A stretch of DNA of 32,000 bases, from the NCBI GenBank assembly GCA_000743035.1, contig CP008936.1, forward strand, positions 1,530,001-1,562,000. The letters are read 5' to 3'. Origin of the DNA: Candidatus Paracaedimonas acanthamoebae. Its GTDB lineage: Bacteria; Pseudomonadota; Alphaproteobacteria; Caedimonadales; Caedimonadaceae. A program made the position numbers and the translations under genes. The notes under the pieces are model-generated. The model did no database searches and had not been told where the DNA came from. It was given only the letters and a program-made list of their open reading frames with translations. This document shows positions 3,375-29,674 of the stretch, piece after piece. Position 1 is the first letter of the stretch. Each line of letters begins with the position of its first letter.

Positions 3375-4343
3375 ATGAGCTACAAACCTCCCTTCATGAT
3401 TACTCCTAGGATTTTCTTTCTTTCTCAAGAGGTATCTCATATTCTTGGGGCTCTTGAAGGAGCAAGACTCAATATAGCACCCATCAAGCTTAGAAAAGAA
3501 AACAACATCAAAACAATTCAAGCATCCCTTTCTATTGAAGGAAACACTTTAAGTCTTGAACAAGTCAGTCATATCCTTGAAGGTAAGCCTGTTGTTGGGC
3601 CAAAGAAGGATATTATTGAAGTTCAAAATGCTATAGAAACTTACGCTTGTTTTGATGAATTTAATCCCTTGTCTGTTAGAGATTTTTTGCATGCTCATAA
3701 GCTTCTTATGAAAGGGCTTATAGAAGAAGCAGGACAATGGCGCTCCAAAGGAGTTGGTATCTTCAAAGGGGGGCAAGTAAAGCATATGCCGCCCCCAGCA
3801 AAACGTGTGCCTGACCTTATGGAAGATTTATTTGGCTTCTTAAAAAATGATCAAGAAACCCCCTGGCTTCTTAAAGCTTGTATATTTCACTATGAGCTTG
3901 AGTTCATCCATCCTTTTTCAGATGGAAATGGAAGGATGGGACGCTTGTGGCAACAGCTGCTGCTTGCTAAAGAAAACCTTGTTTTTAAGTACGTAACCGT
4001 TGAAGAGCTTATTAAGGCACGTCAACGAGAATATTATAGTGTTCTTGCAGAGTGCGACCAAGAAGGGGCATCAACAAAATTTATAGAGTTCTCTTTAAAG
4101 CTCGTTCTTGAGGCCCTGCAACAATATAGGAACATTACTAGTCCTACAGTTAATGATTCTAGGTCTCGTCTTGAGTATGCAAAAGATAAGCTTTCAGACG
4201 CATGGTTTTTACGCAAGGATTATATGGATATCTTTAAGGATGTTTCAACATCGACTGCAAGCCGGGATCTCTTACTTGGGGTAGAGGAGAATATCCTTAA
4301 GAAGCGCGGTACAAAGAACCAAACGAGCTATTATTATCTATAA
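3375..4343 (+). CDS. Fic family protein (AMPylase-type) with an N-terminal inhibitory-helix motif
   Basis: Canonical Fic motif HPFSDGNGRMGR (HPFx[D/E]GN[G/K]R). The upstream SLSIEGN matches the [S/T]xxxE[G/N] auto-inhibition motif. The C-terminal region looks like a winged helix. Confidence 0.85.
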   Translation: MSYKPPFMITPRIFFLSQEVSHILGALEGARLNIAPIKLRKENNIKTIQASLSIEGNTLSLEQVSHILEGKPVVGPKKDIIEVQNAIETYACFDEFNPLSVRDFLHAHKLLMKGLIEEAGQWRSKGVGIFKGGQVKHMPPPAKRVPDLMEDLFGFLKNDQETPWLLKACIFHYELEFIHPFSDGNGRMGRLWQQLLLAKENLVFKYVTVEELIKARQREYYSVLAECDQEGASTKFIEFSLKLVLEALQQYRNITSPTVNDSRSRLEYAKDKLSDAWFLRKDYMDIFKDVSTSTASRDLLLGVEENILKKRGTKNQTSYYYL

Positions 4344-4513: not shown

Positions 4514-4735
4514 CTAGTCTTCTAAATTATATAATCTTTGTGTTATCCTTTTAAGAGCTTCCCCTTCAGGCGTTAACTCCAATATACGTTTCCCTTGGTG
4601 GCGTAAGAACAGGTGCTGATGAAGTTTTTTTTCTAACTTAAAAAAATGAACTTTTAAATTTTCTGAAGAGGTATTTAAGGCTTTTGCAGCATCAACAAAC
4701 CTAGAGTAATGTATAGTTACAGCAAAATATCTCAA
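4514..4735 (-). pseudogene. LysR-family fragment (HTH domain only)
   Basis: The 73-aa ORF has a LysR-like HTH (AAKALNTSSENLKVHFFKLEKKL...LFLRHQGKRILELTPEGEAL) but no effector-binding domain follows. Confidence 0.5.
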
Positions 4736-4761: not shown

Positions 4762-4921
4762 GTCAGTTAATCGCTGCTCTGAAAAAAAGAGCATTATCTA
4801 GAGTCTTATTAAATTCCTTATATATGCTATAAAGGTATTTCCCATATTTGGTCAGCTGACAAATATATTGCTTTCCATGTGTTTTTGAAAATAAAGGAAC
4901 ATTGCAAACTTTTTCTAATTT
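4762..4921 (-). pseudogene. Distal piece of a LysR-type gene split by the transposon 4922..7701
   Basis: The minus-strand translation from 4921 is KLEKVCNVPLFSKTHGKQYICQLTKYGKYLY..., a LysR HTH continuation (LE....LF.R......LT..G). It joins in frame to the piece at 7702..7829 once the insertion and one copy of the target duplication are removed. It stops early at 4793 and shows no effector domain. Confidence 0.6.
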
Positions 4922-5843
4922 AACCTCAGCTCGATATAAGAGGCGTCATTTTTGTGATTGCTTTTTCGAAAGTTATGCTTGGCTTTTTAGGTTTTAAAGA
5001 ATAAGCAAGGAGAGATGAAAGAACATTAGCAAAGTAATTCTGAACTGAGCGATGTCTTGTATGTTGAAGGTGTAAAATTGCTTTGAGTTGACCAATAACA
5101 GACTCTATAACACCTCTTTTATTGAGCCACCATTTTCTAATGGGCTCTAGGAACTGTTTTTTCATATTCCGCTTAAGTCTAGTGATAAGTTCTATATTTG
5201 AAGCTTTAAGAGTTTGAGAAAGCTTTTTACTCAAGTATCCTTTATCGCCAAAGAGCCATCCTTTAAGTCCTTGTGTGAGGGTTTGAACAACAGTGCGATC
5301 ATCTGTGCTTCCTGACGTTATTTTGAAATGCATGAGCTCTCCTTTATCATTAATGATAAGATGAAGTTTAAAACCAAAGAACCACCCTGTTGAGGTCTTT
5401 CCCCATTTTGCAAAATTTTCAAAAACTTTATGGCGTCCTATACGCCAATTGTCACACACTGGTAATTTAGTTGAATCAATAAAATACCGCCCTGTCTTTT
5501 CTGCAGGAATTTGCACCAATAAAAGAAGAAGGGGCATTATGGCCAAAGGAATTAGCTCAAGGAAACGGTTATAACTCACTAAGGTTGGAAAGGCATCTTT
5601 ATAGTATTGAGATAAACCACTCTTATAAAAATCCTTAAATGTTCGATAATGGCTTAACTAAAATAAAACGAGAATAGTCATAATCTCTGAGATAGACAAT
5701 CTACAAGAACGGCGGCGTTGGCCCTTAGAATTAGGCAGGAGTTTTACAGCACTTCTGTTCTCAAATTGCTTGCAAAAATCATCAATAAAGCAGAAAATTT
5801 CTTCTAAGGGGACCATAAAACCTCCTTTAAGTTGGTAGCTTAA
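4922..5843 (-). mobile_element. IS982-family insertion sequence (inner boundary approximate)
   Basis: Contains an IS982-type DDE transposase. The outer end AACCTCAGCTCGATATAAGAGG is repeated inverted at 7664..7701. The inner end near 5821-5843 is only an imperfect inverted match. Confidence 0.65.
4926..5816 (-). pseudogene. IS982-family transposase interrupted by an in-frame TAG
   Basis: The track ORF 4926..5579 (IDSTKLPVC..., GWFFGFKLHLIINDKGEL..., LFGDKGYLS) continues in the same frame upstream to the ATG at 5816 (MVPLEEIFCFIDDFCKQFE...). An in-frame stop lies at 5660-5658. The whole frame spans 297 codons including its two stops (internal TAG and terminal stop), a typical IS982 transposase size. 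Confidence 0.75.
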
Positions 5844-7392: not shown

Positions 7393-7663
7393 AGTTTTTT
7401 ACTTTCATTATTAATAAGTTTATTAAAACTATATACATTAAATAGGAAAGTCAATCCTTTAATGTCAAAATGGCACAATATTATACCTTTCGAGTATCAG
7501 CCTGCAGGAGCGTCATATAACCTGTTAATGATCAGCTTAAAGCAGTCTTACACTTACTAATATACAAAGCACAGCTCAATTTAAAACTATTTTGCCAATA
7601 CCCTCACAACATTACTTACCTATTCCTTAAAACCTAAAAAAACAAGCATCACTATTAAAAAAT

Positions 7664-7701
7664 GATCACAAAAATGACGCCTCTTATATCGAGCTGAGGT
7701 T
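7664..7701 (+). mobile_element. Solo IS982 terminal fragment, inverted relative to the IS end at 4922
   Basis: gatcacaaaaatgacgcctcttatatcgagctgaggtt is the exact reverse complement of 4922-4959. It includes the last codons and stop of the transposase (ITKMTPLISS*). Confidence 0.8.
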
Positions 7702-7829
7702 AATTTAGTAATTCTATTTATAATTGTAACCCCTGTTATATTTAGTTTCATAGATGCTTCTAATAAAGTCACTGAATTCGCACATACAATAAAAGTATAT
7801 AAAAGCTTCCAATTAATATCTTTTGGAAT
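7702..7829 (-). pseudogene. Proximal (N-terminal HTH) piece of the LysR-type gene split by the transposon
   Basis: The minus-strand translation is ...DINWKLLYTFIVCANSVTLLEASMKLNITGVTIINRITK. It ends at the insertion junction and joins to KLEKVCNVPLF at 4921. No canonical start codon remains. Confidence 0.55.
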
Positions 7830-8196: not shown

Positions 8197-8200
8197 TGAT

Positions 8201-8270
8201 ATTGAGCGACAATCAACATTACCGGCAATCTTCTCTGTCGTTTATCCGGTAATGTTGATTGTCGCTCAAT
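8201..8270. repeat. Perfect 25-bp inverted repeat with a 20-nt spacer
   Basis: attgagcgacaatcaacattaccgg (8201-8225) and ccggtaatgttgattgtcgctcaat (8246-8270) are exact reverse complements. Confidence 0.95.
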
Positions 8271-8578
8271 AGATTATACCCCCGCTCTTTTAAAAGCAGC
8301 CAAGGAAGGACTAAAGAAAATCTGGCTTTAGTTATAAGAAAGCTGGCGTATGTTTAATGGGATTAGTTGACAAGGAATGCGTCCAATACTCTCTCTTTAT
8401 CCGTCCTTCGCATAAGCTTGAGATTCTCATGCAAACAATAGATCACCTTAACAAGAAATACGGCAAGAGAGCTGTAAGTTATGCAGCTGTGGGGCAGAAA
8501 GCCTTAACCTTAACCAGTAGAGAGCATCTTTCATCCAGATACACAACCTCATGGGATGAGCTTGCGAAAGTAAGATAA
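8271..8578 (+). pseudogene. C-terminal remnant of a UmuC-like Y-family DNA polymerase (5' truncated, frameshifted)
   Basis: Two frames give TPALLKAAKEGLKKIW and then FSYKKAGVCLMGLVDKECVQYSLF...LNKKYGKRAV...SSRYTTSWDELAKVR. These match the conserved UmuC C-terminal segments (Y.KAGV.L..L, QL.LF, YTT.W.EL). Homology begins right at the palindrome. Confidence 0.65.
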
Positions 8579-8580
8579 CC

Positions 8581-9252
8581 TTAGGCAGGTTTAATACAAT
8601 GAGAGTTATTATTCTTAGGAGTATTCACATACTGACTTACAACATGACATGTTAAATCTTTATATTCTCGAGGATAGAGCATTGCCATCAACTCTTCTGT
8701 ACTTTTATTCTCAGGATCAAGCCAATGGTCATAATTGTGGGGTTCAATAATCACAGGCATTCTAGAGTGATAGGGCTTTAATAGGACATTAGCGTCAGTT
8801 GTAATAATAGTAACACTTACAACCTCTGCCGTTTCTTCGCCGCCTGGCCAATAGTCATAGATGCCTGCAAGTGCAAAAGGTTTATATTCTTTCATATAAA
8901 AGAAATAAGGCTGTTTTACTCCGTGAGAAGAGGTCCATTCATAGAAGCCTGAAGTTGGAATCAAGCATCTTTGTTTTTGAAATGCGTTCTTATAATAGGG
9001 TTTTTCTTTTAAAGTTTCAAAGCGAGCATTAATTGGTTTAGGCGCTTCATTAGGATTTTTTGTCCATGAAGGAATTAAACCCCAATGAGCTAAGTGAAGG
9101 TGATTATCACGAGTTTCTGCACCTTGGGAGATAATTAAGATACTTTGAGAAGGGGCAATATTGTAAGAAGGGAGAATAGAACTTTCTTCTTTTAACTCAA
9201 ATTCAGCTTTAAGTTCCTCAATTTTAGAAAAAAGAGTAAATCTTCCGCACAT
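8581..9252 (-). CDS. SOS-response-associated peptidase (SRAP, YedK/DUF159 family)
   Basis: 223 aa starting MCGRF with the catalytic Cys2, followed by YNIAPSQ, NARFETL and a typical C-terminal core. Confidence 0.9.
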   Translation of the reverse strand: MCGRFTLFSKIEELKAEFELKEESSILPSYNIAPSQSILIISQGAETRDNHLHLAHWGLIPSWTKNPNEAPKPINARFETLKEKPYYKNAFQKQRCLIPTSGFYEWTSSHGVKQPYFFYMKEYKPFALAGIYDYWPGGEETAEVVSVTIITTDANVLLKPYHSRMPVIIEPHNYDHWLDPENKSTEELMAMLYPREYKDLTCHVVSQYVNTPKNNNSHCIKPA

Positions 9253-9338
9253 ATTCCCGCCTTCTTAAGAGGTTGAGACAAAAATATATCACACGCTATT
9301 TTAAAGAGATTTAATTTCTAAATTAATTATTTATAATA

Positions 9339-9830
9339 TTAATTATTATTTTTTGCCTTCTTTCTTCGAAGAGCTTTTTCAAGTTTCTCTTGAGCATAAT
9401 CTTTATGTTCTTGAGTAATTTCTTGAATTTGTTGGCCTTGCAAATCATATCGATGAGTGCCATTGATAACAACTTTTAAATAATCAAAGTTATTGGTGTA
9501 AAATGTGAGGGCGTCTCGTACTTTCGCTTTTGAAGGGGAACCTTCTTGCTCAAGAAAGGGATAAAGATCTTTATCAATGTTAAGCTTGAGAGGTTTTAAG
9601 TCTTTAGGATTAAAGCAAGCAGGAAATTGCTCATAAAGCCAAGTTAAAACGGCTTTAATTCCTTCTCTCTTCTTCTGCTTAGCATCACGCTCTTTTTGTT
9701 TCTGTTCCTTTCCTTGTCTGCGCTTCTCTTTCTCTGCTTGTTCATGAAGCGGCTTAAGCGCTTGGAAGAGCTGGGTTTGCTTTTGTAAACTTAAAGGTTT
9801 CTTTAATGTAAGCTTGGGTTTACCGGTCAT
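9339..9830 (-). CDS. ProQ/FinO-family RNA-binding protein with a Lys-rich N-terminal extension
   Basis: LTWLYEQFPACFNPKDLKPLKLNIDKDL...VRDALTFYTNNFDYLK parallels the E. coli ProQ N-terminal domain (FLAERFPHCF...PLKIGIFQDL...LRSALRLYTSSWRYL). Confidence 0.8.
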   Translation of the reverse strand: MTGKPKLTLKKPLSLQKQTQLFQALKPLHEQAEKEKRRQGKEQKQKERDAKQKKREGIKAVLTWLYEQFPACFNPKDLKPLKLNIDKDLYPFLEQEGSPSKAKVRDALTFYTNNFDYLKVVINGTHRYDLQGQQIQEITQEHKDYAQEKLEKALRRKKAKNNN

Positions 9831-11294: not shown

Positions 11295-11450
11295 GGTGCG
11301 CTCCTTTCAATAAAGGAAGAGCGCTAGTTTTGCTGAAACTTTGAAGTTTATTGTTATTCCCTGAAGAATAAAAAATCAGGGGTAGAAACTTATCATAAAT
11401 ATATGTTACAGTACGCATGTACACGTTTCCTCATGGTTATGTGTTGCTGA

Positions 11451-11495
11451 AAGCCCGCGTTCTGACTGCGAAATCTAAGCGCGGGTTTTTCTTTT
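11451..11495 (+). terminator. Candidate plus-strand intrinsic terminator with no upstream plus-strand gene
   Basis: GC stem cccgcg (11454-11459) pairs with cgcggg (11480-11485), followed by tttttctttt. The loop is long at 20 nt, so this is only moderate. Confidence 0.35.
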
Positions 11496-12233
11496 GTTAT
11501 CTCAATACTAAATCGTTAGTGCCTGAAACCCTTTTAAAAAAGATCCAGCAGCCCGAAGACCACTGGATTCAGTTAACAGGGAGGCTATGCAAGGAATACA
11601 ATGTACCTTGCCACTTGACACACGCGATGTGTCAAATTTCTTGATCGTCTGTTCATCTATTAGATCTTTTGTTTCTTTATCGGAAATAGAAGGGAGAGAA
11701 ACTCTTAGCTTCTCTCGACCTTCTATCTTTGGCGAGGGAGGGACGCCAAACTTTAATGATAAGAAATGATTTGTGGTTCTTGTCCTCATGGAATGAAGCC
11801 TAGCAGTATTGCAACTGCTAGGCTTCTTCGGGGGAAGAACTGAATTAAAGGATGATAGTAGTGTCTCGTTTAGATGAAGCTCGTTAGCGCTGATTAACAA
11901 GTGATTCAGCGACTGATAGAAAGAACCATTATATATTCTTTCATTTGTGTGTGAAATCTGAAGCATTATTTCCCATCCCCAACTACCTGCTCTTGATGCC
12001 TCTGTTAGACTCTCCTGATTCTATTTGTTAAGCGAGAGGCAACAAGGCTCACATATATTTACGCCCTGTAAGTCATGCAAACTACAATAACATCGTAATA
12101 TTCTATTATCAACACAAAAATGTCACGTATATAGCTTGGGCATTTATTTTTGGATGAGTTTTTTCCTTAAAATTTTACACATATTTCATGTATTGATGTA
12201 TTGTTTTTTCCATAGTAAAACTCAGGAGCAAGA

Positions 12234-15313: not shown

Positions 15314-15870
15314 ACCCCCTTCTAAGTATAATTCTGATTGTTATCTTATAGCTTCTTAGTCTTCAGTTGAGCTATTTTGAGTAAGCTATAAGGTATAAGA
15401 AAATCCTTCTCCCGTGATTTTTATAGACGATTTTTAGGAGTTAGCCTACATAAAAGTAAAGTATGGCCTCATATACAGATTAGGGCTTAATAAACGACTT
15501 GCATGGCGAGTAGAGTTGGTGGGGGTGATTTTACTCTTTAAGCCATCCCTGCATGCGTACTTATTCTTTCTATCAAGTCACTAGGCGGTTTATTTGAAGG
15601 CTTAAGCAGCCCCCTGCTGCTTGTAACGATTTTAGCTTATCAAAGAGCATTTTCTAATTTCAAGGAGAAAAGCAACCTGTGCCTTTTTCTCCTATTCTCA
15701 TTATTGTGCTGCAACTTATGGAAAATTCTCTTATCGAAATCATTGCCATTTCGCCTTCCTAAATATCTTTAGCCAACTCATGTTTACTTCATAACATCTT
15801 TTTTTCTTTCTCTTTTATCTAGCTGCTGGTTTTGGTTTTTCATATCTGTCATCCCCCCTTTGTTGGGGCT

Positions 15871-16037
15871 CAACCAAGTCCTGACATTTATTTCATGGCT
15901 TTAGCCTTAGCGTGTCCTTTTTCAAGGGTCTTTACGCCGCACGCGGTCTCCCGAAAAGACCCTTGAAAAACGCCCCTCATGCCAAGGCTTCTTCAATCCA
16001 TGAAAGGTCGGAATGGTTTCGGCCTCAAACAATGGAG
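15871..16037 (+). repeat. Structured leader module, copy A (paralogue of 20430..20593)
   Basis: Direct repeat of copy B. It contains a perfect 16-bp stem tttttcaagggtcttt (15918-15933) / aaagacccttgaaaaa (15955-15970), an enclosing agcctt.gc/gc.aaggct stem and a second hairpin aggtcg...cggcct just before the Shine-Dalgarno sequence. Confidence 0.85.
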
Positions 16038-16044
16038 AATGAAT

Positions 16045-16236
16045 ATGAAAAAGAATCAACCCACACACACCATCTATCAAGTCATTGAATGCGAAAAAGA
16101 TACAAAAATCTGGTCGAGAGTAGGGGCGGCTTGGATGCATCAGGATGGCGAAGGCTTCAATCTTGTTTTCGACGCCTTTCCCCTTACAGGAAGCGTCGTG
16201 GTTCGTAAGAAATCAGCAGAGGGCAAAGGGGCATAA
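16045..16236 (+). CDS. Small 63-aa protein with a GAAW motif (DUF736-like, tentative)
   Basis: GGAG lies 7 nt upstream of the ATG at 16045. The track ORF's N-terminal extension from 15979 runs through the repeat and is unlikely to be translated. IWSRVGAAWMHQDGEGFNLVFDAFPL resembles the DUF736 core (GAAW....G..L.L.D.P) seen on alphaproteobacterial plasmids. Confidence 0.5.
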   Translation: MKKNQPTHTIYQVIECEKDTKIWSRVGAAWMHQDGEGFNLVFDAFPLTGSVVVRKKSAEGKGA

Positions 16237-16267: not shown

Positions 16268-17350
16268 ATGTTAACAGAGCAACGCATCCTTCACACCCTT
16301 GAGATCATCTCTGCTTTTAAGAATAATGCTGCTTCAGAGGATGTTTTAGAGAATTACATTGGTTGGGGCGGATTACATGATGAGATTGATATCTCAAGCG
16401 TGTATCAAGAGCTTAAAAAGTCACTAAGCGCTGAGGAAATCACAAGCTTAAAGCAAACGCTGATAAGCGCTTATTATACACCTGCCTTCCTTGTTCAATT
16501 TATCTATGATTGGCTTAGCATTTATGGTTTTAAAGGAGGAAATATCCCTGAGCCTGCTGTTGGTCATGGTGTCTTCATTGAGCATATGCCAAAGGCTATA
16601 TGGGAGCAGTGTACCATCACCACCATTGAAAAAGATTATCTCACAAGTGATATGGTTCAAACTCTTTACCCTGATTCCACCCATTATACGATAGGTTTTG
16701 AGGAATACCATCCTCAAGAAAAGTTTGACCTTATCGTCGGAAATCCACCCTTCGGTTCACAGACCATTGAAGATAAGCATCATACTGATATCCAGCACCA
16801 CTGCATTCATCATTATTTTGTTGCCAAGAGCATGCGCTTACTTAAGGAAGAAGGCATCCTTGCTATGGTGCTGACATCTTTCTTCTTTGATAATGTGAGA
16901 GATCATGTGCGCTATATCATTCATCGTGAAGGAGGAAGTTTCCTTGCAGCTTATCGTTTACCTGATAATATATTTTCAGGGGCAAAAATTACCGTTGATA
17001 TTGTCTTCCTTACTAAAGGAAGGGCAAAGAATAAATGGCTTAAAGCCAGAAATATTACCATTGGCTCTCTGTCAAAGCCCATCAATGAGTATTTCCATTA
17101 CAATAGCCATCATATTCTAGGAAACCTGGAAATCATCCTTATGTATGAAAGAAAAGGTCTAGCTTGTAAAAGGAGGGGAGATATCCATTATCTTTTAGCT
17201 CAAACCTTAAAAGATAGGGCACAAGCAAGCCTCACTAATCTTAGCTGTTCGCTTCTTGAGGTTGAGAAAGCTATGGAAGAGCTTAAGGCTAAGAAGCAAC
17301 GGCTTTTATCCAGCTATAAAGAGATACTCTGCCTTGCCAGATTCTTATAA
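16268..17350 (+). CDS. Orphan N6-adenine DNA methyltransferase (gamma-class motif order)
   Basis: Motif I is EPAVGHGVF and motif IV is LIVGNPPFG. The N-terminal YIGWGGL...AYYTPAFLV is typical of plasmid/ICE-borne methylase modules. The likely start is MLTEQR at 16268, which has an AAAGGAAAG Shine-Dalgarno sequence. The track start at 16145 overlaps the previous gene. Confidence 0.8.
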   Translation: MLTEQRILHTLEIISAFKNNAASEDVLENYIGWGGLHDEIDISSVYQELKKSLSAEEITSLKQTLISAYYTPAFLVQFIYDWLSIYGFKGGNIPEPAVGHGVFIEHMPKAIWEQCTITTIEKDYLTSDMVQTLYPDSTHYTIGFEEYHPQEKFDLIVGNPPFGSQTIEDKHHTDIQHHCIHHYFVAKSMRLLKEEGILAMVLTSFFFDNVRDHVRYIIHREGGSFLAAYRLPDNIFSGAKITVDIVFLTKGRAKNKWLKARNITIGSLSKPINEYFHYNSHHILGNLEIILMYERKGLACKRRGDIHYLLAQTLKDRAQASLTNLSCSLLEVEKAMEELKAKKQRLLSSYKEILCLARFL

Positions 17351-17460: not shown

Positions 17461-19644
17461 TTAAGCGATAAGCCACTCTTTCAGTTTGGTATATCTTTTT
17501 TTGGCTTGTTGATCTCTCACTGCCATAGATAGAGCTTTCTTTTGTCCTACAAGGATCACAAGCTGTTTTCCACGCGTGATGCCAGTGTAAAGAAGATTCC
17601 GCTTAAGCATAGGGTAGTGTTGCATCATGAGCGGAATAACAACGGCAGGGTATTCAGATCCTTGAGCTTTATGGATGGTTGTAGCATAAGCAAGCACCAC
17701 TTCATCAAGTTCGCCAAAATCATAAGTGATGAGCCTTCCTTCATATTCTACTTTGAGTTCTTGTTCTTCTTGGCTGATTTCTCTGATGTAGCCAATATCC
17801 CCATTATAAACATCTTTGTCATAGTTATTGGCAATCTGCATCACCTTATCATCCACACTATAACTTGAGCCAAAGCGTTCGACCCTATTTTGTAGCGAAG
17901 GATTTAAGGTTTTCTGAAGCTCTATATTAAGTGACCTTGCGCCCACTCCACCTCTGTTCATAGGACATAAGACTTGAATCTCTAAAATAGGATTAAAGCT
18001 AAAAGCTTTAGGGATTCTATTCTTTACAAGCTCCAGTATTTTATCCTTACACTCTTCTGGTGTCTGGCTTTCAATAAAATAAAAGTCAGATTTGTCTTCT
18101 TTTTGAGGGAAAAGTGGCATAAGTCCTTGGTTAATGCGATGAGCATTTGAAATAATCTGGCTTTGAGCAGCTTGGCGGAAGATTTCTGTAAGCCTCGCAA
18201 CCGTAAAAACTCCTGACTTAATTAAGGCATTTAAAACAGCTCCAGGCCCAACAGAAGGGAGCTGATCAATATCTCCCACTAAAATAAGGGCAGAGTGAGG
18301 GGGAAGGGCTTTGAGAAGAGAATGCATCAAGGGAACATCCAACATGGAGACTTCATCTACGACAAGAAGCTGACATTCAAGAGGTTCTTCTTCGTTCCTT
18401 TTAAAGTCATGTTTTTCTGGATCGTATTCTAAAAGCCTATGGATGGTTTTCGCTTCAAAGCCTGTGGTTTCTGATAAACGTTTAGCAGCACGCCCCGTTG
18501 GCGCTGTAAGTAGGATTTCTAGATGTTTAGCGGCCAATATTTTTAACAGACTTTTAATGAGGGTTGTCTTTCCAACCCCAGGGCCCCCTGTAATAATGGC
18601 AACTTTAGAATTAAAAATAAGCTTAAGGGCTTCTTTTTGGCTTTCTGCTAAGGTCATTGAAAGGCGCTCTTCAACCCACGGGATGGCTTTATCAATCTCA
18701 AGCACTCCCCAAGGGGGCTTACATGAGGAAAGTTTTTTGAGAGATTTTGCAATCAGGGTTTCAGCAAGATAGAGGCCTTTTAAGAATACACAAGCTTCAC
18801 CCTCAAGAGTATCCCCCACTAAGTCACCAGTTGTTAGTTCCGACTCAAGAACAGGTTTAACACTATCAACGGGTATTTCTAAAGCCTGTGCGGTTGAAGT
18901 TAAGAGCACCTCTATCGGAAGACCGCAATGGCCTTCATCCATGGCCTCGAGTAAGATATGGCTGATTCCTGCTCTGATTCTTAAAGGCGAGTCTTTGGCA
19001 ATTCCAACCTTTTGCGCAATTTGATCCGCCGATTTAAAGCCAATGCCTCTGATTTCTCGGGCAAGACAATACGGATCTTCCTTTATAACTCTTATGGCAT
19101 CCGTCCCAAAGGTTTTATAGATCCTAACAGCCCTTGCGGTACTAATGCCATGTTGATAGAGAAAGACCATAATCTCTCTAATAACTTTTTGATCATCCCA
19201 GGCTCTTGTCATCATGGTCATGCGATACTGACCAATTCCTTCAACAGTCCGCAATAAATGAGGAGTTGTTTCAATCACATCGAACACTTGAGATCCAAAA
19301 GCTTTAACCAGCTTTTTAGCATACACAGGGCCAATGCCCTTGATCATGCCTGAGCTTAGATATTTTTCAATGCCTTCTTCTGTATTTGGCGCTGTTGTGT
19401 TGAGGTAATTTGCTTTAAACTGGGGGCCGTAGTTTTTGTCATTGATCCATATCCCTGAGGCTTGGATAAACTCGCCAGCAGAGATCATGCTTGCATGCCC
19501 TACAACAGTGACAAGATCTTTCTGCCGCTCAGCTTTAACACGTAAGACGCAATAACCATTTTCCGCATTATGGTAAGTGACCCGTTCAATAAGGCCAGTC
19601 AGAAGGTCAAGCTGTGGTGAAGAGGAAGTAACGCTCATAAGCAC
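17461..19644 (-). CDS. recD2: RecD2-type SF1B DNA helicase (RecD/TraA family)
   Basis: 727 aa. The N-terminal reads ERVTYHNAENGYCVLRVKA...GIWINDKNYGPQFKA. HhH-like segments follow, then Walker A ITGGPGVGKTT, Walker B LLVVDEVSMLD and a C-terminal TIHKAQGSE. Confidence 0.9.
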   Translation of the reverse strand: MLMSVTSSSPQLDLLTGLIERVTYHNAENGYCVLRVKAERQKDLVTVVGHASMISAGEFIQASGIWINDKNYGPQFKANYLNTTAPNTEEGIEKYLSSGMIKGIGPVYAKKLVKAFGSQVFDVIETTPHLLRTVEGIGQYRMTMMTRAWDDQKVIREIMVFLYQHGISTARAVRIYKTFGTDAIRVIKEDPYCLAREIRGIGFKSADQIAQKVGIAKDSPLRIRAGISHILLEAMDEGHCGLPIEVLLTSTAQALEIPVDSVKPVLESELTTGDLVGDTLEGEACVFLKGLYLAETLIAKSLKKLSSCKPPWGVLEIDKAIPWVEERLSMTLAESQKEALKLIFNSKVAIITGGPGVGKTTLIKSLLKILAAKHLEILLTAPTGRAAKRLSETTGFEAKTIHRLLEYDPEKHDFKRNEEEPLECQLLVVDEVSMLDVPLMHSLLKALPPHSALILVGDIDQLPSVGPGAVLNALIKSGVFTVARLTEIFRQAAQSQIISNAHRINQGLMPLFPQKEDKSDFYFIESQTPEECKDKILELVKNRIPKAFSFNPILEIQVLCPMNRGGVGARSLNIELQKTLNPSLQNRVERFGSSYSVDDKVMQIANNYDKDVYNGDIGYIREISQEEQELKVEYEGRLITYDFGELDEVVLAYATTIHKAQGSEYPAVVIPLMMQHYPMLKRNLLYTGITRGKQLVILVGQKKALSMAVRDQQAKKRYTKLKEWLIA

Positions 19645-19651
19645 TCATTTG

Positions 19652-19945
19652 TTATCCTAGCAAATCAATGAGATTCCTGTAACCACTTAGGATTCTTACG
19701 ACCTCTAAAGGATTGGAATCTTCCTTATAAATAATAAGATAATTATAAACAGGCCAAAAGAGAACAGGATGGTTTGTAAGGTCTTTCCTTTTGTGTCCCA
19801 TGTGAGGATATTCACTAAGCATCCTGCACTTTTCTTCAATGGTGTCTAGAACTTTAATAGCATTTGTAGGGCTTTCTTCAGAAATATATTGCCATATTTC
19901 TAACAGATCCTGCCTTGCAGCAGGAGAAAAGATAAAGGAAGACAT
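19652..19945 (-). CDS. parE: ParE/RelE-family type II toxin
   Basis: 97 aa. AARQDLLEIWQYI...YPHMGHKRKDL...YLIIYKE....VVRILSG is typical ParE. It starts 2 nt after the parD stop. Confidence 0.85.
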   Translation of the reverse strand: MSSFIFSPAARQDLLEIWQYISEESPTNAIKVLDTIEEKCRMLSEYPHMGHKRKDLTNHPVLFWPVYNYLIIYKEDSNPLEVVRILSGYRNLIDLLG

Positions 19946-19946
19946 C

Positions 19947-20204
19947 TTAGTGATTTTTCTTCTTAATTAAAGCTTTAAGCTCCTTAAAGACCTTCTCTCC
20001 TTCAATGCCTTGTCCTTCCGATAATTGGTTAAGACCCAGCTCAATTTCTTGATTGAGCTTCTGGGTTTGTTGCTTAAAAAGAGTGTCTTTCTCAATCAGA
20101 AGTCTTAAAGCATCCCGCACTACCTCACTCGCAGAGTTGTAATATCCTTGTTGGACTTTTTGGTTGATGAAGTCTTCTAAATTTGGGTTCAAGGAAATGT
20201 TCAT
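19947..20204 (-). CDS. parD: ParD-family type II antitoxin
   Basis: 85 aa. MNISLNPNLEDFINQKVQQGYYNSASEVVRDALRLLIEKD is the ParD (COG3609-type) pattern. Confidence 0.8.
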   Translation of the reverse strand: MNISLNPNLEDFINQKVQQGYYNSASEVVRDALRLLIEKDTLFKQQTQKLNQEIELGLNQLSEGQGIEGEKVFKELKALIKKKNH

Positions 20205-20429
20205 AATACGCTCTCTTTTACTTGATTAGCTCTATAATTACTTTACACCTTATAACGAAAATTAGCAATAATTGTTATTCATCTTATCATAAGAGAGTTC
20301 TCAAACTTCGCACCTATATATTGTTTTAAAATTTTAGTATAGCTGATCGCTTTTTCTCATTATTGCTTATTGCTTGAATAAGCTTATCTTAATTTTTGCT
20401 TGTTATTTCTTTTCTCTCTTCTTGAATAT

Positions 20430-20593
20430 CAACCCATCACGACCTTTTATTCCAGGGCTTTAGCCTTGGCGTGTCCTTTTTCAAGGGTCTTTGCGCCGCT
20501 AAAGCGGTCTCCCGAAAAGACCCTTGAAAAACTCCCCTGATACTAAGGCTTTTTTAACCCATGAAAGGTCGGGATGGTCTCGACCTCAAAGGA
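20430..20593 (+). repeat. Structured leader module, copy B (paralogue of 15871..16037)
   Basis: It has the same 16-bp stem (20477-20492 / 20516-20531) and the same outer stem. The second hairpin aggtcg...cgacct lies just before the AAAGGAGA Shine-Dalgarno sequence. Weaker similarity extends upstream to about 20348, matching about 15685 in copy A. Confidence 0.85.
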
Positions 20594-20602
20594 GATAAAA
20601 AA

Positions 20603-20917
20603 ATGGAATACAATCAATCAAGCAACAAAAATACTCATGCCATCAATCACCAAAGTAAGAAAAGAGCAATGGCTCAGACCAAAGTACAACAATATGATCT
20701 AGCCGCTGTGTTGCATGATTGGAGAGTAGATCCAAACTGCTCGTTAGCAAAGGCAATTAAATGTATCTTTAAAATAACTTCAAGCGAAGAAGAGCGAGTA
20801 TATCTCAATATCGCTATCGTTGAGCTAGGAGATTGGATCTATCAATATTATGAATTTTTAACACCTTTTGGGTTTCCATCCACAGAGCCTGAGGTTAATT
20901 ATGACTCTCTTCCTTAG
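20603..20917 (+). CDS. Hypothetical 104-aa protein behind leader copy B (possible DUF3310-like core)
   Basis: AAAGGAGA lies 7 nt upstream of the ATG at 20603. The track start at 20561 lies inside the repeat. YDLAAVLHDWRVDPNCSLAKAIKCIFKI...YLNIAIVELGDWI loosely resembles the DUF3310 pattern. Confidence 0.5.
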   Translation: MEYNQSSNKNTHAINHQSKKRAMAQTKVQQYDLAAVLHDWRVDPNCSLAKAIKCIFKITSSEEERVYLNIAIVELGDWIYQYYEFLTPFGFPSTEPEVNYDSLP

Positions 20918-21134: not shown

Positions 21135-21359
21135 CTAGGGGCTTTGGCCCCTTTTTAAAGCAGAAGCTTCAGTAAACCTAACCTTTTCCTTAAGTGCTAG
21201 ATAGCTGTGTGAGTATTCATCAGTTTCTTTCAGTAAAGATCTTAATTCTAAAAGAGCACCAAAGAGGGCATGCACCTGATCTTTGCACTCCACATCCTTT
21301 TGAAGATCAGTGCCAAGTTCAATGGAAAATTCATCTAAGAGACCTGACTTTGCAAGCAA
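21135..21359 (-). CDS. Ti-type TraD-like small relaxosome accessory protein (start uncertain; homology extends to about 21470)
   Basis: The open frame upstream of the TTG at 21359 encodes ...LKRKEESQITFINSTLRKARTRCLVQAGGLLAKSGLL. This matches the RKARTR.LI.LGGL..KAGL motif of TraD_Ti-type proteins. No ATG or GTG lies in that stretch. Confidence 0.5.
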   Translation of the reverse strand: MLAKSGLLDEFSIELGTDLQKDVECKDQVHALFGALLELRSLLKETDEYSHSYLALKEKVRFTEASALKRGQSP

Positions 21360-21471: not shown

Positions 21472-21720
21472 TTAATTTGCTTGTGGTGCGACTTGAGAAG
21501 GGCGAAAGGAAGTTGCTTTTTGCAGCCACGTCTCCTTTAGCTTAGGTGATTTATTTTCCCAAGCATGAGCAATAAGCCCTACAACGAGTTCAGAGGAGTA
21601 CTCTTCCCCTAAAATCTTATGGAACTTTCTGTAAAGCATGAGGGCCTCTTTTGTCTCAAGTTCCATTTCTTTCTTCTTCAAATACTCAATTTTTTTCCTG
21701 ATTCCATTAATGTTATTCAT
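21472..21720 (-). CDS. Small coiled-coil relaxosome accessory protein (TraC/TraD-like), divergent from traA
   Basis: The internal start MNNINGIRKK at 21720 has AAGGAG 10 nt upstream. It has a coiled-coil KKIEYLKKKEMELETKE, then HKILGEEY..LVVGLIAHAW. The longer track ORF to 21924 would cover the oriT-like intergenic region. Confidence 0.5.
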   Translation of the reverse strand: MNNINGIRKKIEYLKKKEMELETKEALMLYRKFHKILGEEYSSELVVGLIAHAWENKSPKLKETWLQKATSFRPSQVAPQAN

Positions 21721-21851
21721 AACTGTTCTTCTCCTTAAATCTATAGTGTTCTTTCTTGCCAAAAGGGAGATTTCTTCTCCCTTTAAAATCCCACTTTTTC
21801 CTTTATAGGAAACAGTTATAAGCATATTATATAAAGTATAAATCTGCAAGT

Positions 21852-21873
21852 CTTGGCGGCAAATTTTATACGA
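21852..21873 (-). other. Candidate MOBQ-type oriT nic region
   Basis: The minus strand reads gtcgtataaaatttgccgccaag. As I recall it, this resembles the Ti/RSF1010-type nic core (..CGTATAATTGCGCC/CT..). It lies in the 245-bp divergent interval between the accessory gene and traA, which is the canonical position. Confidence 0.3.
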
Positions 21874-21965
21874 CAAGCGCGCAGATATGTTGCAATAAAA
21901 ATGCAACTCTTCGCTTCGGGGCAAGCCCCTTAGTTAGGACACAAAGAAAGGAACAAAAAACAAAA

Positions 21966-24900
21966 ATGGCCTTAGCGCATGGTCGCTTAAAAGTAATCTC
22001 CCGTTCTAAACGAAATACCGTGCGAGCCCTTGCTTATCGCACAGGCTGCAAGATCTATGATCATCGGACTGGTGAACTCATGACTACCCGCAAGAAAATG
22101 CATGAGGTGCAGCATGTAGAACTCTTACTTCCTCAGGACGCGCCAGAATGGGCTTTGGAGCTAAGAAATCTTATAGCAGCTGATCGCCAAAAAGGCATGC
22201 AGAAGTTTTCTGATATTGTAGAAGCACACGAGAAAAGAAAAGACGCTCAAGTTTATCGAGAATACGAGTTCGCTTTGCCACGAGAATTTATAGATGAGCA
22301 AGGCATAAAACTCGCGAATGAGTTCATTCAAGATCAGATGTGTGGCCAAGGAATGACTGTGCTTGCTAATTTTCATTTTGATGTTGATGAAGACACAGGG
22401 GAGAGAAAACCCCACTGTCATGCTTTAATGCTCACTCGAAGACTTACAGAAAAAGGATTATCATTAAAAAAAGAAGTTGAGTGGAATCGAAGAAGCTTAG
22501 GGGCAGAACTTAGAGAACAGCTTGTTGCTTACACAAACTTTCATCTTAAAATGTATAGTTTTGATGAAAGGCTTGATTATCGTTCTTATGCTGAAAGAGG
22601 CATTGAACTTGAGCCTCAGCCTAAGCGGGGAACAAACGTTAAGGCAGTGGAATTAAGAGAAGGGAACAACCCTCAAGATCTCTTCTCAAGTGTTGCCTCA
22701 GAAAAAGCTATTGCCTTTCGTGCAACCAAGCTGAGAAATATCTACCGTATTATCAGAAATCCTGACATCGTTATTCGTGATATTGTAAGCAAGCATCATG
22801 CTACTTTTATGTGGGGAGATGTTGAGAAAGTACTCAATCGTTATATTGATGATAAAGACCTCTACAAGCAAGTAGAGCAGAAACTTAAATCTTCAAAAGA
22901 ACTCGTATTGCTTAGGTATGACACAATTAAACATAAGGATGGCAGCATTGAAGATCATTCCATTTACACGACCAGGACGATGCTGGAATCAGAGATTAAT
23001 TTGGTAACTTTAGCAGAGAGACTCAGCAAGGAACAAACCCATAAGGTAGACAATGATAAAATTGGTATTATTGTTCATCAATTTGACCAAAAGCTTTCAA
23101 AGTATGGTGGCCTTTCACCTGATCAAAAGAAAGCCCTTCGCCACATAACAGCACCAAACCAGCTTTCATGCATTGTAGGCTATGCCGGTGCTGGCAAGAC
23201 CACAGCTTTAGAGGCTACTAAAGAAATTTGGGAAGCAGAGGGCTATAAGGTTTATGGTCTTGCGCCCACAGGACGGGCAGCACAGAACCTTTCGCAATCA
23301 GGTATATCCTCACAAACACTTCACAAATTTCTGTACTCTCATAAAGAAGGAAGGTGTCAGTATAAGGCTAATTCGGTCCTTATCCTTGATGAAGCAGGGA
23401 TGGTGGACACGGAAAGGTTTGATGAGTTTTTACAAGCGGTTGATGATTTAAAGGTTAAAGCAGTTATTGTTGGGGATGGGGCACAATTGCAGCCTGTTGA
23501 AGCGGGTCCTGCTTTTAGACTTGTGACTGAGAAGGTAGGAATGTCCCACCTTGAAAAGGTGGTTCGCCAGAAAGAAGCATGGCAACAGGAAGCAACAAAG
23601 CTTTTTGGGACTCTTAAGACAAGAGAAGCTCTTCAAGCTTATCATCAAAAGGGGTATGTGCAGTTTATTGAAGAAAAAGAGATCCCTATTGCTGAACTCA
23701 TTGAGACAAGAAATCATTTTAAAATTGTTGAAACATACAACCTTTCCCGTCGTATGGTGGGTAATATTTACCATTCTATGGTTGAGGATATTAAAAAAGA
23801 TAATCCTGAAGAAAAGAACCCCCATTATTATCTTCAGAGCCATGAAGATTATACTCTTTATCGAAAATGGTGGGATCTTAAGGAGGTATGTGCGCGCCAT
23901 ATGAAGCAGAATCTTCATGAATGTCGACCTTTGATGAAAGAGCTCGGTGTTGACCCTCAACACTTTGCAGAACAGTTTGTTGATAAAGGGATGAGCCTTA
24001 GGGAACAAAAGCTAGAAGCAACCCACTTAGCCCGTCTCTGGGAGCTCCCACAATTAAATCCTTACCAAAGGAAGCATATCTGTGAGCTGAGAAATGAGAC
24101 AAAGAAAGCCCTCATTCAGGAATGGTATGCATCCTTTAAGGAAGACGCTCAAAAATCCCGCCTTCTTATGACCTACAGTAAGGCAGATACAGCTATGCTT
24201 AATGAGGAAGCCCGCCATCTTATGAAACAAGATGGTGTGGTAGCAAAAGAAGAATATCTCCTCACTATCTATAAAGAAGACGAAGATGTTTTTGGAGACA
24301 AGATTATTACAAAAGAAGAGAAGTACTTTGCCAAAGGCGATCGTATCCTTTTCATGAGAAATAATAATGGTCTCAAAGTTAGAAAGGGAACATTAGGGGT
24401 TATCTTAGAAATTAACCGCCATAAGATTAAAGCCAAGCTTGATCATACTGGCGATATCGTCTCTTTTGCGCCTAAGCTTTATCCTTACTTTGACCAAGGC
24501 TGGGCGGCTAACATTCATAAATCTCAAGGGGTAACTGTTGACCGAGCATTCTTATTAGCTACCCATGAGACCTACCGTAATCTGGCTTATGTGGGTATGA
24601 CAAGACATCGAGAGTGGGGGAAAATCTTTGGCTCCAAACTTGATTTCTGGCGAGAGGAGATCTTTTTCAAACGGCTTTCTTCATCTCAAGAAAAGCTCTC
24701 AAGCTTGGATTATATGAAATCCTATGATAATATAATTCTTCCAAAGCAAAATTTTAAACTTCAGGAGATCCTTAACCGCCTTGGCAATGAACTAGAGGCA
24801 ATGCGTTTCGTGTCCAAACAAGCGTGGCAGAGTATCGCAGAGCGGTTTTTAAGTAAGATTCCCGAGCAACAAGAGATCCGTATCTCTCAAAGAAGTATCA

Positions 24901-25418
24901 GTGAGCACATCAGGGCAAAAGAGTTATTGGAAGAACATGGTACCGAAAATAATAAGCTTCATAAAAAGTATATTGAACAAGAGTATTCAATCAAAAATGC
25001 TTCCAACCCAAACACCACAAGAACATCTAAAAATGAAACTGATAGTATTGGGATTCGCCAGCCAGCAGAGGAAAAAGACTTTAAGCAACCACTCTCTCTT
25101 CATAAGGTGGCTCAAGAGCCTCAAACGCTAGCAAGTGACAATCTAAAAGTACAACAGCAGCAGCAATTGAAGACAAGAGCAGAGCTAACAGGGCTTGAAA
25201 GAATAAAGTCTCTCATTGATGCTCATAAGCTTACTCGTACAGAAGCAGAGCGAAAACAAACTGAGGCTACTCTCAGGCAGTACGCCCAAGAACTTTACAA
25301 GCAAGATCCAACCTTTAAAAGTATTAGAAATAAAGATGCAGAAATAACTAAGCAGGTTAGAGCCATTCTATTTGAAGGAGAAAGAAACAAGATTAATGAC
25401 AGGGAACATCAGAGATAG
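21966..25418 (+). CDS. traA: Ti-plasmid-type TraA relaxase-helicase (MobA/MobL MOBQ relaxase + RecD-like helicase)
   Basis: The N-terminal reads MALAHGRLKVISRSKRNTVRALAYRTGCKIYDHRTGE with the catalytic Tyr region. The histidine triad region reads KPHCHALM. The helicase domain has Walker A VGYAGAGKTT, Walker B VLILDEAGMVD and a later NIHKSQGVT. Confidence 0.9.
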   Translation: MALAHGRLKVISRSKRNTVRALAYRTGCKIYDHRTGELMTTRKKMHEVQHVELLLPQDAPEWALELRNLIAADRQKGMQKFSDIVEAHEKRKDAQVYREYEFALPREFIDEQGIKLANEFIQDQMCGQGMTVLANFHFDVDEDTGERKPHCHALMLTRRLTEKGLSLKKEVEWNRRSLGAELREQLVAYTNFHLKMYSFDERLDYRSYAERGIELEPQPKRGTNVKAVELREGNNPQDLFSSVASEKAIAFRATKLRNIYRIIRNPDIVIRDIVSKHHATFMWGDVEKVLNRYIDDKDLYKQVEQKLKSSKELVLLRYDTIKHKDGSIEDHSIYTTRTMLESEINLVTLAERLSKEQTHKVDNDKIGIIVHQFDQKLSKYGGLSPDQKKALRHITAPNQLSCIVGYAGAGKTTALEATKEIWEAEGYKVYGLAPTGRAAQNLSQSGISSQTLHKFLYSHKEGRCQYKANSVLILDEAGMVDTERFDEFLQAVDDLKVKAVIVGDGAQLQPVEAGPAFRLVTEKVGMSHLEKVVRQKEAWQQEATKLFGTLKTREALQAYHQKGYVQFIEEKEIPIAELIETRNHFKIVETYNLSRRMVGNIYHSMVEDIKKDNPEEKNPHYYLQSHEDYTLYRKWWDLKEVCARHMKQNLHECRPLMKELGVDPQHFAEQFVDKGMSLREQKLEATHLARLWELPQLNPYQRKHICELRNETKKALIQEWYASFKEDAQKSRLLMTYSKADTAMLNEEARHLMKQDGVVAKEEYLLTIYKEDEDVFGDKIITKEEKYFAKGDRILFMRNNNGLKVRKGTLGVILEINRHKIKAKLDHTGDIVSFAPKLYPYFDQGWAANIHKSQGVTVDRAFLLATHETYRNLAYVGMTRHREWGKIFGSKLDFWREEIFFKRLSSSQEKLSSLDYMKSYDNIILPKQNFKLQEILNRLGNELEAMRFVSKQAWQSIAERFLSKIPEQQEIRISQRSISEHIRAKELLEEHGTENNKLHKKYIEQEYSIKNASNPNTTRTSKNETDSIGIRQPAEEKDFKQPLSLHKVAQEPQTLASDNLKVQQQQQLKTRAELTGLERIKSLIDAHKLTRTEAERKQTEATLRQYAQELYKQDPTFKSIRNKDAEITKQVRAILFEGERNKINDREHQR

Positions 25419-25947: not shown

Positions 25948-26211
25948 ATGCAAATCTTTTGGACACTTAGTGCACAATTAGACCTTGAGAATATATTTGA
26001 TTATATTTTCCAACAAAACCCACAAGCCGCTCATAGAATTTATGAAGAAATCCAAACTAAAATAGGTATGCTTTCTGATTCCCCTTACGAGGGAAAGACC
26101 AGTAAAATTTCTAACACAAAAGAATTAGTGTTCTCAGAGCTTCCTTACACCGCTATCTATCGTATACTTCAAGTGGAGATCCAAATTCTTAGGCTGCTAC
26201 ATGGCGCATAA
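25948..26211 (+). CDS. RelE/ParE-family toxin without an intact cognate antitoxin
   Basis: 87 aa. IFWTLSAQLDLENIFDYI...SPYEGK...ELVFSELPYTAIYRI...IQILRLLHGA is a ParE/RelE pattern. The upstream frame (25821-25940) encodes only a start-less fragment ending ...LKILKQIRNKIKN*. Confidence 0.7.
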   Translation: MQIFWTLSAQLDLENIFDYIFQQNPQAAHRIYEEIQTKIGMLSDSPYEGKTSKISNTKELVFSELPYTAIYRILQVEIQILRLLHGA

Positions 26212-29644: not shown

Positions 29645-29674
29645 TATATTTACTTAGCTTACTTGTAATCTTAT

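Follow-up and report, generated by a model that had tools for sequence, protein, structure and literature searches.

What is the function of a strongly folded non-coding module that occurs twice, each time directly in front of a different gene, in the chromosome of Candidatus Paracaedimonas acanthamoebae, a Holosporales endosymbiont of amoebae? The two copies, termed here modules A and B, lie within a chromosomally located element with conjugation genes, in a stretch of 32,000 nucleotides of contig CP008936.1 (positions 1,530,001 to 1,562,000, assembly GCA_000743035.1), which we refer to as the window and in whose numbering all positions are given. The initial annotation of this DNA compared the modules with the Frpo and ssi elements of the leading regions of F and ColIb-P9, which act as single-stranded-DNA (ssDNA) promoters. 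Such promoters provide a route to the expression of anti-defence genes before incoming plasmid DNA has become double-stranded. To our knowledge, those with experimental support (Frpo/ssp1, ssp2 and ssp3) all belong to IncF and IncI plasmids of Enterobacteria. Homology searches for ssDNA promoters outside this group have yielded little (PMC11541004; PMC12672017). We put the probability at roughly one in two that each module is a ssDNA promoter, which might in addition serve for priming or as a roadblock, in the leading region of a Ti-type (MOBQ) element, conjugative or mobilisable, that is integrated in a Holosporales chromosome. With slightly more reserve we suggest that the modules represent a new, compact (~145 nt) class of ssDNA promoter, unrelated in sequence to Frpo and ssp1-3, which has a -10 core pre-opened by an internal loop and belongs to the Ti-type (MOBQ) elements of Holosporales.

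The presence of two modules in direct orientation was confirmed, each being about 180 nt long (Table 1). Comparison by blastn aligned positions 15887-16029 with 20446-20590 (88.3% identity over 145 nt, E 6e-49), and a repeat finder returned two repeat families, D1 and D2 (87 nt at 89% and 71 nt at 83%), with a spacing of 4559-4561. As had been reported, each copy runs up to the Shine-Dalgarno (SD) sequence of a gene on the plus strand. It stops at the start codon, GGAG and ATG being legible in each case, and a search with a profile of the family found no third copy in the window. The weaker similarity that had been noted further upstream did not stand up to analysis, as it reflects T-rich, low-complexity resemblance and not homology. 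Across orthologues, the sequences upstream of A-type and B-type copies are each conserved but mutually unrelated, and homology between the two paralogues begins abruptly at the base of the hairpin described below. The modules are also GC-richer (45-49%) than most of the AT-rich window. An ATG inside the module (position 16000 in A and 20561 in B) was considered as a gene start and rejected, as it is out of frame in three of ten family members, has no SD and is not followed by a synonymous substitution pattern. In the other seven it is in frame with the downstream gene, so that gene callers annotate extended proteins (78 amino acids instead of 63), and the resulting N-terminal extension is probably spurious. 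Around 250 nt upstream of module A, a small hairpin at ~15603-15625 is retained in the different elements, its changes being compensatory (AAGCAGCCCCCTGCTGCTT versus GGTGGCCCCCTCCCACC), and is followed by a conserved AAGGAG and then by a short, poorly conserved open reading frame (ORF).

The two copies share an identical perfect 16-bp stem, and both the CCGC..GCGG apex and the outer stem AGCCTT.GC / GC.AAGGCT described previously were found in them. That these elements form one imperfect hairpin in each copy also holds, but its size had been put at 90-100 nt and is in fact about 145 nt, comprising five helices (P1-P5). When folded as DNA, the hairpins have energies of -34 to -37 kcal/mol and z-scores of -4.7 to -5.8 relative to shuffled sequences, on either strand and in both copies, and when the minus strand is folded in sliding windows across the 32 kb, the modules rank third and fourth among 1591 windows (z about -4.2 and -4.1). 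The internal loop formed by AAAG and TCTTCAAT is asymmetric (4 x 8 nt) and conserved. A small hairpin that follows on the 3' side of the plus strand is paired in 93% of alignment cells, and its changes are one-sided and compatible with G.U pairing in the plus sense; this is weak evidence, which fits a promoter or a leader model. No U-tract follows the hairpin on either strand, in agreement with the initial annotation. An intrinsic terminator was rejected on the lack of a T-run, the terminator-like calls within the module being sub-hairpins at chance level.

Relatives of the module were sought with an exact pattern of its 19-base core (596 Gb of genomes and JGI metagenomes; one genome per species) and also gathered by walking from homologues of the proteins encoded directly after each module, namely the GAAW protein (module A) and the product of gene B (module B). 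Twelve distinct full-length variants (81-91% identity) were recovered, along with a partial copy and another that carries an internal deletion. The pattern scans alone yielded only close relatives (at least 81% identity) and chance matches, the latter being 22-nt matches at which the module is absent. Three variants and the deletion variant were contributed by protein walking, again all from Holosporales, and the source of the entire set is this order (the metagenome-assembled genome 'Caedibacter sp. 38-128' and metagenomes). The module had no blastn match among 72,556 plasmids. Rfam gave no match at gathering threshold over the whole window, and at E<=5 around module A the sole match was an unrelated 18-bit group-II fragment within the GAAW gene.

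Analysis of covariation in an alignment of ten sequences (A3) demonstrates that the hairpin is under selection. The consensus structure contains 46 pairs, in which 95.2% of cells are paired, compared with 32-50% when the partners are slid by one to three columns, and there are 14 cells in which both partners have changed, a number matched by none of 500 shuffles. Variation is focused on four base pairs in the middle of the central stem, next to the sequence TTGAAA, which occur in at least six Watson-Crick forms (GGGT, TGGT, TCAT, GAGG, GCAT and GCTT, with their complements), whereas the flanking TTTTTCAA/TTGAAAAA is almost invariant. Taken together, the folds, the rank within the window and the covariation indicate a long and unusually stable stem-loop on a single strand, as would be expected of a ssDNA promoter. 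Between elements the module retains 84-91% nucleotide identity, compared with 64-84% for the upstream non-coding DNA; the neighbouring genes are comparable to the module. The A-type and B-type paralogues are each orthologously conserved across elements. In one relative (L068 2990-3085, Logan assembly SRR10342236) P4, P5 and the apex, including TTGAAA, are precisely deleted between two GGCTT direct repeats, and the outer helices and leader are kept in front of an intact gene B. The inner hairpin may have been lost naturally, or the palindrome may have led to an artefact of assembly.

The gene order around the modules is that of the DNA transfer and replication (Dtr) region of rhizobial and Ti plasmids, with traA, the origin of transfer (oriT) and then traC and traD. 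An intergenic region between the traC-like gene and traA, which shows 86% mean column identity across six elements, contains a nic-like motif, which reads TTGGCGGCAAATTTTATACGAC in the sense of traA, and an inverted repeat after it. This motif resembles the rhizobial oriT core AGGGCGCAATATACGTCGC, in identical orientation relative to traA; the rhizobial core is located between traA and traCDG and belongs to the RSF1010 type (PMC4700958). Two rhizobial Ti-type plasmids have AGGGCGCA(A/G)TA(A)TACGTCGC..GCGACGT in the corresponding place and orientation with respect to traA. In oriTs of the RSF1010 type, the inverted repeat is located 5' of the nick on the strand that is nicked. Application of this rule to the orientation of the nic-like motif makes the nicked strand antisense to traA, with the traC side leading, and we infer that the transferred strand is the minus strand. 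The leading region would therefore extend to the left of ~21,855, with module B ~1.3 kb and module A ~5.8 kb from the nic-like site, and the minus strand is the template for both module-led genes. Synteny and motif orientation thus place the modules in the leading region, in front of genes whose template is the putative transferred strand, as expected for ssDNA promoters. In two related loci (L002 6076-8260 and L003 3815-5134) a 439-aa reverse-transcriptase ORF (RVT_1) is present between the traC-like gene and traA. The insert, which begins with GTGCG, directly follows the hairpin GGGGCAAGCCCC in the oriT-like region and looks like a group II intron of the hairpin-targeting kind.

The slot occupied by the module is constant in related loci, being located either just past traD or past parDE and recD2, and co-oriented with traA. 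The module always adjoins the SD of the GAAW gene or of gene B, and never precedes parDE or recD2, which are encoded on the opposite strand; at least five different variants of the relaxase, with 74-92% amino-acid identity, are represented among these loci. The genes downstream are of the kind that fits a leading region. The best PHROG match of the methyltransferase encoded in the operon behind module A is 'DarB-like antirestriction' (E 8e-66), and the GAAW protein in front of it shows weak similarity to DUF736. Families annotated as DUF736 are enriched in leading regions (PMC11541004 Suppl. Table 1; Samuel et al. 2024).

This arrangement has many features in common with the Frpo/ssi elements (class 1) of F and ColIb-P9. 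These are likewise repeated, near-identical non-coding hairpins of the leading region that are located directly upstream of separate operons templated by the transferred strand, are GC-richer than their surroundings (a trend reported for the ssDNA promoters of F; PMC13478746) and precede anti-restriction or establishment functions. In F, Frpo1 and Frpo2 are ~90-92% identical, ~5-5.4 kb apart and separated by the flmAB toxin-antitoxin locus, and both are required for early expression in the recipient (PMC9849209); the modules, too, form a pair, at a distance of 4.6 kb, that encloses a toxin-antitoxin locus. However, the module measures ~145 nt compared with ~330 nt for Frpo/ssi, lacks their UP-like A+T tract, and resides in an alphaproteobacterial endosymbiont on a MOBQ (Ti-type) element, whereas Frpo/ssi belong to MOBF and MOBP systems of Enterobacteria. 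Homology to Frpo has been defined by BLAST at E<=1e-6 (Samuel et al. 2024). Comparison of the module with the F leading region, ColIb Frpo1, ssiE and the Frpo'/Frpo* candidates (blastn with word size 7 and E<=10; nhmmer) gave only chance matches of 10-16 nt, none of them inside Frpo1, Frpo2 or ssp2. At about -36 kcal/mol the module is also well above the -75 kcal/mol per 300 nt of the screen by Wen et al., because it is shorter and AT-richer. The proposal in the initial annotation is consequently borne out in leading-region context, orientation and two-copy design, but not in homology or in size, which is half that of Frpo/ssi. Judged by these comparisons, the module is a putative analogue of Frpo and not a member of its family.

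In the mechanism that we envisage, TraA would nick at the oriT-like site, near 21,855 on the minus strand, and this strand would enter the recipient 5' to 3' in the order traC/traD, gene B with module B, parDE, recD2 and the methyltransferase/GAAW operon with module A. Each module, while single-stranded, would fold into its ~145-nt hairpin, of which the central helix would offer TTGAAA in duplex form as a -35-like element; 16 nt nearer to the base of the same arm lies T-AAAG-C (dashes marking the borders of the unpaired part), a -10-like sequence whose unpaired A-rich core could serve as a pre-melted bubble. Host RNA polymerase would bind this pseudo-duplex with the gene-proximal arm as template and start ~7 nt past the -10, near 16,004-16,006 in module A and 20,565-20,567 in module B. 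Transcription would then proceed through a leader of ~40 nt, which opens with the small 3' stem-loop, to the SD and the gene. Synthesis of the complementary strand would part the arms and remove the hairpin, and the promoter would therefore be on only during entry. Recognition by the polymerase, the start site and activity confined to the single-stranded state are what we infer from this layout.

Conservation within the hairpin is consistent with such a role. TTGAAA, which matches the -35 hexamer at five of six positions, is invariant in 11 of the 12 full-length variants (TTTAAA in L036), and the arm that bears the candidate hexamers is the most conserved block, with 97.1% mean identity compared with 92.3% for the opposite arm, and loops that are 94-98% conserved compared with 85%. 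No positionally conserved double-strand promoter was found within 330 nt upstream of A-type copies, which fits an operon expressed only on entry. Among the single-strand promoters of F-type plasmids, the layout of the module appears to resemble ssp2 most closely. This promoter, located upstream of ardB/klcA, and ssp3, located upstream of a methyltransferase gene, represent further unrelated classes defined by 5' RACE (rapid amplification of cDNA ends) and deletion (PMC12672017; PMC13478746; bioRxiv 10.64898/2026.01.09.698686), ssp2 being the 'class 2' of F and pESBL (Wen et al. 2025, Fraikin et al. 2026). When the transferred strand of F ssp2 is folded upstream of the klcA-like gene, TTGCAT-15-TAAGAT (hexamers by our assignment) reads from loop to base on the gene-distal (3') arm, the -35 and the spacer are fully paired, and the second hexamer is split into a paired T, an unpaired AAG and a paired AT. 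Both elements therefore have a paired -35 and similar sequences at the opening (GGCT-AAG-AT in ssp2 and GGCT-AAAG-C in the module), and ssp2 also has a short leader to the SD and an anti-restriction gene downstream. In contrast to the module, ssp2 retains the T at -7 (TAAGAT compared with TAAAGC), its hairpin is ~250 nt long with 69% GC, and there is no homology between the two; it is ssp2 that has experimental start sites and deletion phenotypes.

Several observations weigh against a ssDNA promoter. The candidate -10, TAAAGC, matches at only three of six positions and lacks the T at -7, the two hexamers together score no higher than the shuffled mean (66-84% of shuffles do equally well), and the A+T-rich UP-like stretch is absent upstream of the -35; moreover, the ssp2 hexamers used for comparison were assigned by us from the sequence and not taken from a figure. 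Linear sigma-70 scans (a tool scan, and a position weight matrix with shuffles) gave nothing significant in the module, nor in the validated Frpo1 and Frpo2 of F, and hence do not discriminate. The sequence TTAGCA-17-TATCAT is conserved ahead of copy B, where the module could thus be a 5' untranslated region. The identity of the transferred strand rests on modest motif resemblance together with the rule that the relaxase gene enters last, and the sequences favour neither strand as the one that folds, as G.T-type cells number 28 on each strand (union of pairs) and single-sequence DNA energies are nearly equal (-32.7 kcal/mol for plus and -34.2 kcal/mol for minus). The reverse-complement consensus is slightly better (-50.6 versus -48.2 kcal/mol, 51 versus 46 pairs). 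An argument for folding of the plus strand from wobble counts (26 G.U compared with 7 C.A cells) was rejected as biased, since the structure had been predicted on the plus strand (RNAalifold). Within the leading region of Ti-type plasmid pHCG3B from Afipia, the one plasmid examined, no comparable hairpins were found, and DUF736 and ArdC-like genes are present on the right strand. The feature is accordingly not general to MOBQ, and the hairpin device may be lineage-specific. Finally, the element lies in the chromosome of an obligate endosymbiont and has a frameshift in gene B, so that its current transfer activity is unproven.

The main alternative, which we regard as less probable and which the initial annotation had also named, is that the module is instead a structured 5' leader of an mRNA that starts at a conventional promoter upstream, with the hairpin regulating stability, processing (e.g. 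by RNase III) or translation. The plus-sense RNA folds equally well (about -56 kcal/mol) and the covariation is strand-neutral. The sigma-70-like sequence conserved upstream of copy B would suit a leader, but A-type copies have no such positionally conserved site within the same 330 nt, and paralogue homology starts abruptly at the hairpin base, whereas a duplicated regulatory unit would be expected to bring its own promoter. The apex of every copy contains an unvarying anti-SD-like CTCCC, and P2 has a competitor in the small 3' hairpin, whose only changes are compatible with plus-sense G.U pairing; it is possible that the apical CUCCC pairs with the GGAG of the SD or that P2 and the small hairpin form a switch, although the hairpin leaves the SD free. 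A long stem-loop that immediately precedes a plasmid gene's ribosome-binding site is also found in the traJ leader, which is controlled by FinP-FinO, and a ProQ/FinO-family gene lies 6 kb away in the window, but this gene was not seen in the related loci examined, and unlike the traJ system the module has no evident antisense promoter or terminator, a much longer hairpin and no resemblance to an Rfam family. A leader would also leave unexplained the exclusive location in the leading region, the co-orientation with traA and the F-like design of two copies with a toxin-antitoxin locus.

Less probable still is a single-strand DNA element that is not a promoter, such as a priming signal (ssi- or sso-like) for synthesis of the complementary strand, a replication roadblock that keeps the DNA single-stranded for longer or a binding site for a transfer protein, which would share the location and strand logic of a ssDNA promoter. 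The single-strand origins (sso) of rolling-circle plasmids and ICEBs1 and ssiA/ssiB of RSF1010 are, like the module, one-strand hairpins of mobile elements. Elements of the sso/ssi type function only while single-stranded, and host RNA polymerase recognises some of them (ssoA-type). The known ssDNA promoters also act as sources of primers and as roadblocks (PMC7690428; bioRxiv 10.64898/2026.01.09.698686), the weak -10 would fit such a role, and the conserved unpaired apical 11-mer CTCCCGAAAAG and conserved internal loops suggest sequence-specific recognition. However, sso and ssi elements prime DNA synthesis and are not gene leaders, whereas the module ends exactly at the SD of genes from two unrelated families, which argues for coupling to expression; furthermore, neither a primase gene among the window proteins nor similarity to known ssi sequences was found. 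It is highly improbable that a selfish palindromic repeat (a miniature inverted-repeat transposable element, MITE, or a Rickettsia palindromic element) has landed here twice, or that the module is an operator palindrome for a dimeric protein. The module is indeed palindromic, ~150 bp long and repeated, the ORF that follows is lengthened by its internal ATG in 7 of 10 copies, and the host group is rich in mobile DNA, with insertion sequence (IS) elements nearby. Against a selfish repeat, every copy found in the genome and metagenome core-pattern scans is in one tra-linked slot and one orientation, terminal inverted repeats and target duplications are absent, and the A and B types are conserved orthologously; an operator is difficult to reconcile with compensatory changes that keep pairing and not sequence, and with internal loops that are asymmetric yet conserved. 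MITEs and Rickettsia palindromic elements were rejected, given only two copies in the window and the fixed synteny and orientation in the scans, which required an exact 19-base core and covered one genome per species. An integron attC site was likewise rejected on inspection, as GCTCAAC fits R'' in copy A only, with no complementary GTTRRRY and no integrase among the ORFs, and a retron was rejected because its defining features are missing.

If the modules are indeed ssDNA promoters, transcription of the transferred strand in the entry phase would have arisen independently outside the enterobacterial IncF and IncI plasmids, and the strategy would be shown to be convergent and widespread. The module would also provide a minimal hairpin on which to work out the requirements of RNA polymerase, namely a paired -35 and a pre-melted -10. 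Searches could then be guided by structure and synteny instead of homology, for example for paralogous hairpins that adjoin the SD of genes templated by the transferred strand near oriT. If the modules prove to be RNA leaders, they would represent an undescribed cis-regulatory RNA of leading-region genes.

Table 1. Positions of the modules, their structural elements and the associated genes in the 32,000-nt window.
Feature	Position	Strand	Description and basis
Module copy A	15864..16044	plus	Starts TGGGGCTCAACC, ends one base before the ATG of the 63-aa gene; blastn, nhmmer, repeat finder, alignment A3
SD and start codon, copy A	GGAG 16034-16037; ATG 16045		
Hairpin A	15873..16017	minus (proposed functional strand)	Helices P1-P5 and apex; DNA folds z -5.1 (plus), -5.3 (minus)
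Central stem A	15918-15933 / 15955-15970		Perfect 16 bp; 21-nt apex with CCGC..GCGG and invariant CTCCCGAAAAG
Candidate -35, A	15920..15925	minus	TTGAAA; 3' arm of minus strand, fully paired, in perfect stem
Candidate -10, A	15898..15903	minus	TAAAGC, 16 nt after TTGAAA; T closes P4, AAAG in internal loop, C opens P3
Small 3' hairpin A	16005..16025	plus	AGGTCG..CGGCCT; family form AGGTCG..CG(G/A)(C/T)CT
GAAW protein gene	16045..16236	plus	63 aa; first gene after module A
Orphan N6-adenine DNA methyltransferase gene	16268..17350	plus	Second gene of the operon; Pfam Eco57I, N6_Mtase
RecD2-type helicase gene	17461..19644	minus	Between the modules, no hairpin in front; Pfam, conserved synteny
ParE/ParD toxin-antitoxin pair	19652..20204	minus	Between the repeat copies; Pfam, synteny
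Conventional promoter-like site	20262..20290	plus	TTAGCA-17-TATCAT, ~135 nt upstream of module B; overlaps a ParD operator-like palindrome
Module copy B	20423..20602	plus	Repeat unit up to the ATG of the 104-aa gene
SD and start codon, copy B	GGAG 20591-20594; ATG 20603		
Hairpin B	20432-20578		Five helices
Central stem B	20477-20492 / 20516-20531		Perfect 16 bp; 23-nt loop
Candidate -35, B	20479-20484	minus	
Candidate -10, B	20457-20462	minus	
Small 3' hairpin B	20566-20586		
Gene B	20603..20917	plus	104 aa, frameshifted; homologues 159-184 aa, no known domain
traD-like gene	21135-21359	minus	Divergent from traA; Ti-type Dtr synteny
traC-like gene	21472-21720	minus	Divergent from traA; Ti-type Dtr synteny
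oriT-like intergenic region	21721..21965	minus	245 bp; nic-like motif 21853-21874, inverted repeat 21889-21907
TraA relaxase-helicase gene	21966..25418	plus	Ti-type (MOBQ); Pfam MobA_MobL, AAA_30

The proteins encoded around the modules were also considered. TraA scores 587.7 bits against the NCBIfam model TIGR02768 (TraA_Ti), for which the cut-off is 590.45, and a faint TraD match in Pfam was obtained for a homologue (L001) of the small traD/traC-like genes. Gene B is the first gene after traD in every related locus. In the present sequence the remainder of its product (EPFLKNKTQ...YRALF...) continues in another frame to ~21075, the frameshift being due to decay of the element or, alternatively, to an error in sequencing. 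The GAAW protein is a member of a large family of proteins of ~65-90 aa, with 897 cluster representatives at E<=1e-3 and the consensus PTHxVY...W..IGAAW.H.DG.GFN..L.A.P..G..V.R. Its AlphaFold model is confident (pLDDT 88.8) and consists of a four-stranded beta structure, for which no fold match was found in the PDB. A second ParE-family toxin gene is located just downstream of traA (25948-26211).

Further structured and repeated sequences are present elsewhere in the window. The most stable hairpins are formed by a perfect 26-nt pair with a 20-nt loop and by a 38-nt pair (95%) around 124 nt (8200-8271 and 29446-29645). The region 11441-11860, between the TENA/THI-4 and LysR genes, folds unusually well (z -3.8 and -2.9), contains only unsupported ORFs and has no Rfam match. 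Inverted repeats of 55 nt (91%), at 4912-4966 and 7657-7711, lie on either side of a 483-aa ORF and a DDE transposase, an arrangement suggestive of an IS element. The window also encodes a SRAP/YedK-like protein, the RNA chaperone of the ProQ/FinO family, a Fic protein and a protein with F-box and TPR domains (8581-9830, 3375-4343 and 30515-31975), the last of these being a eukaryote-like effector.

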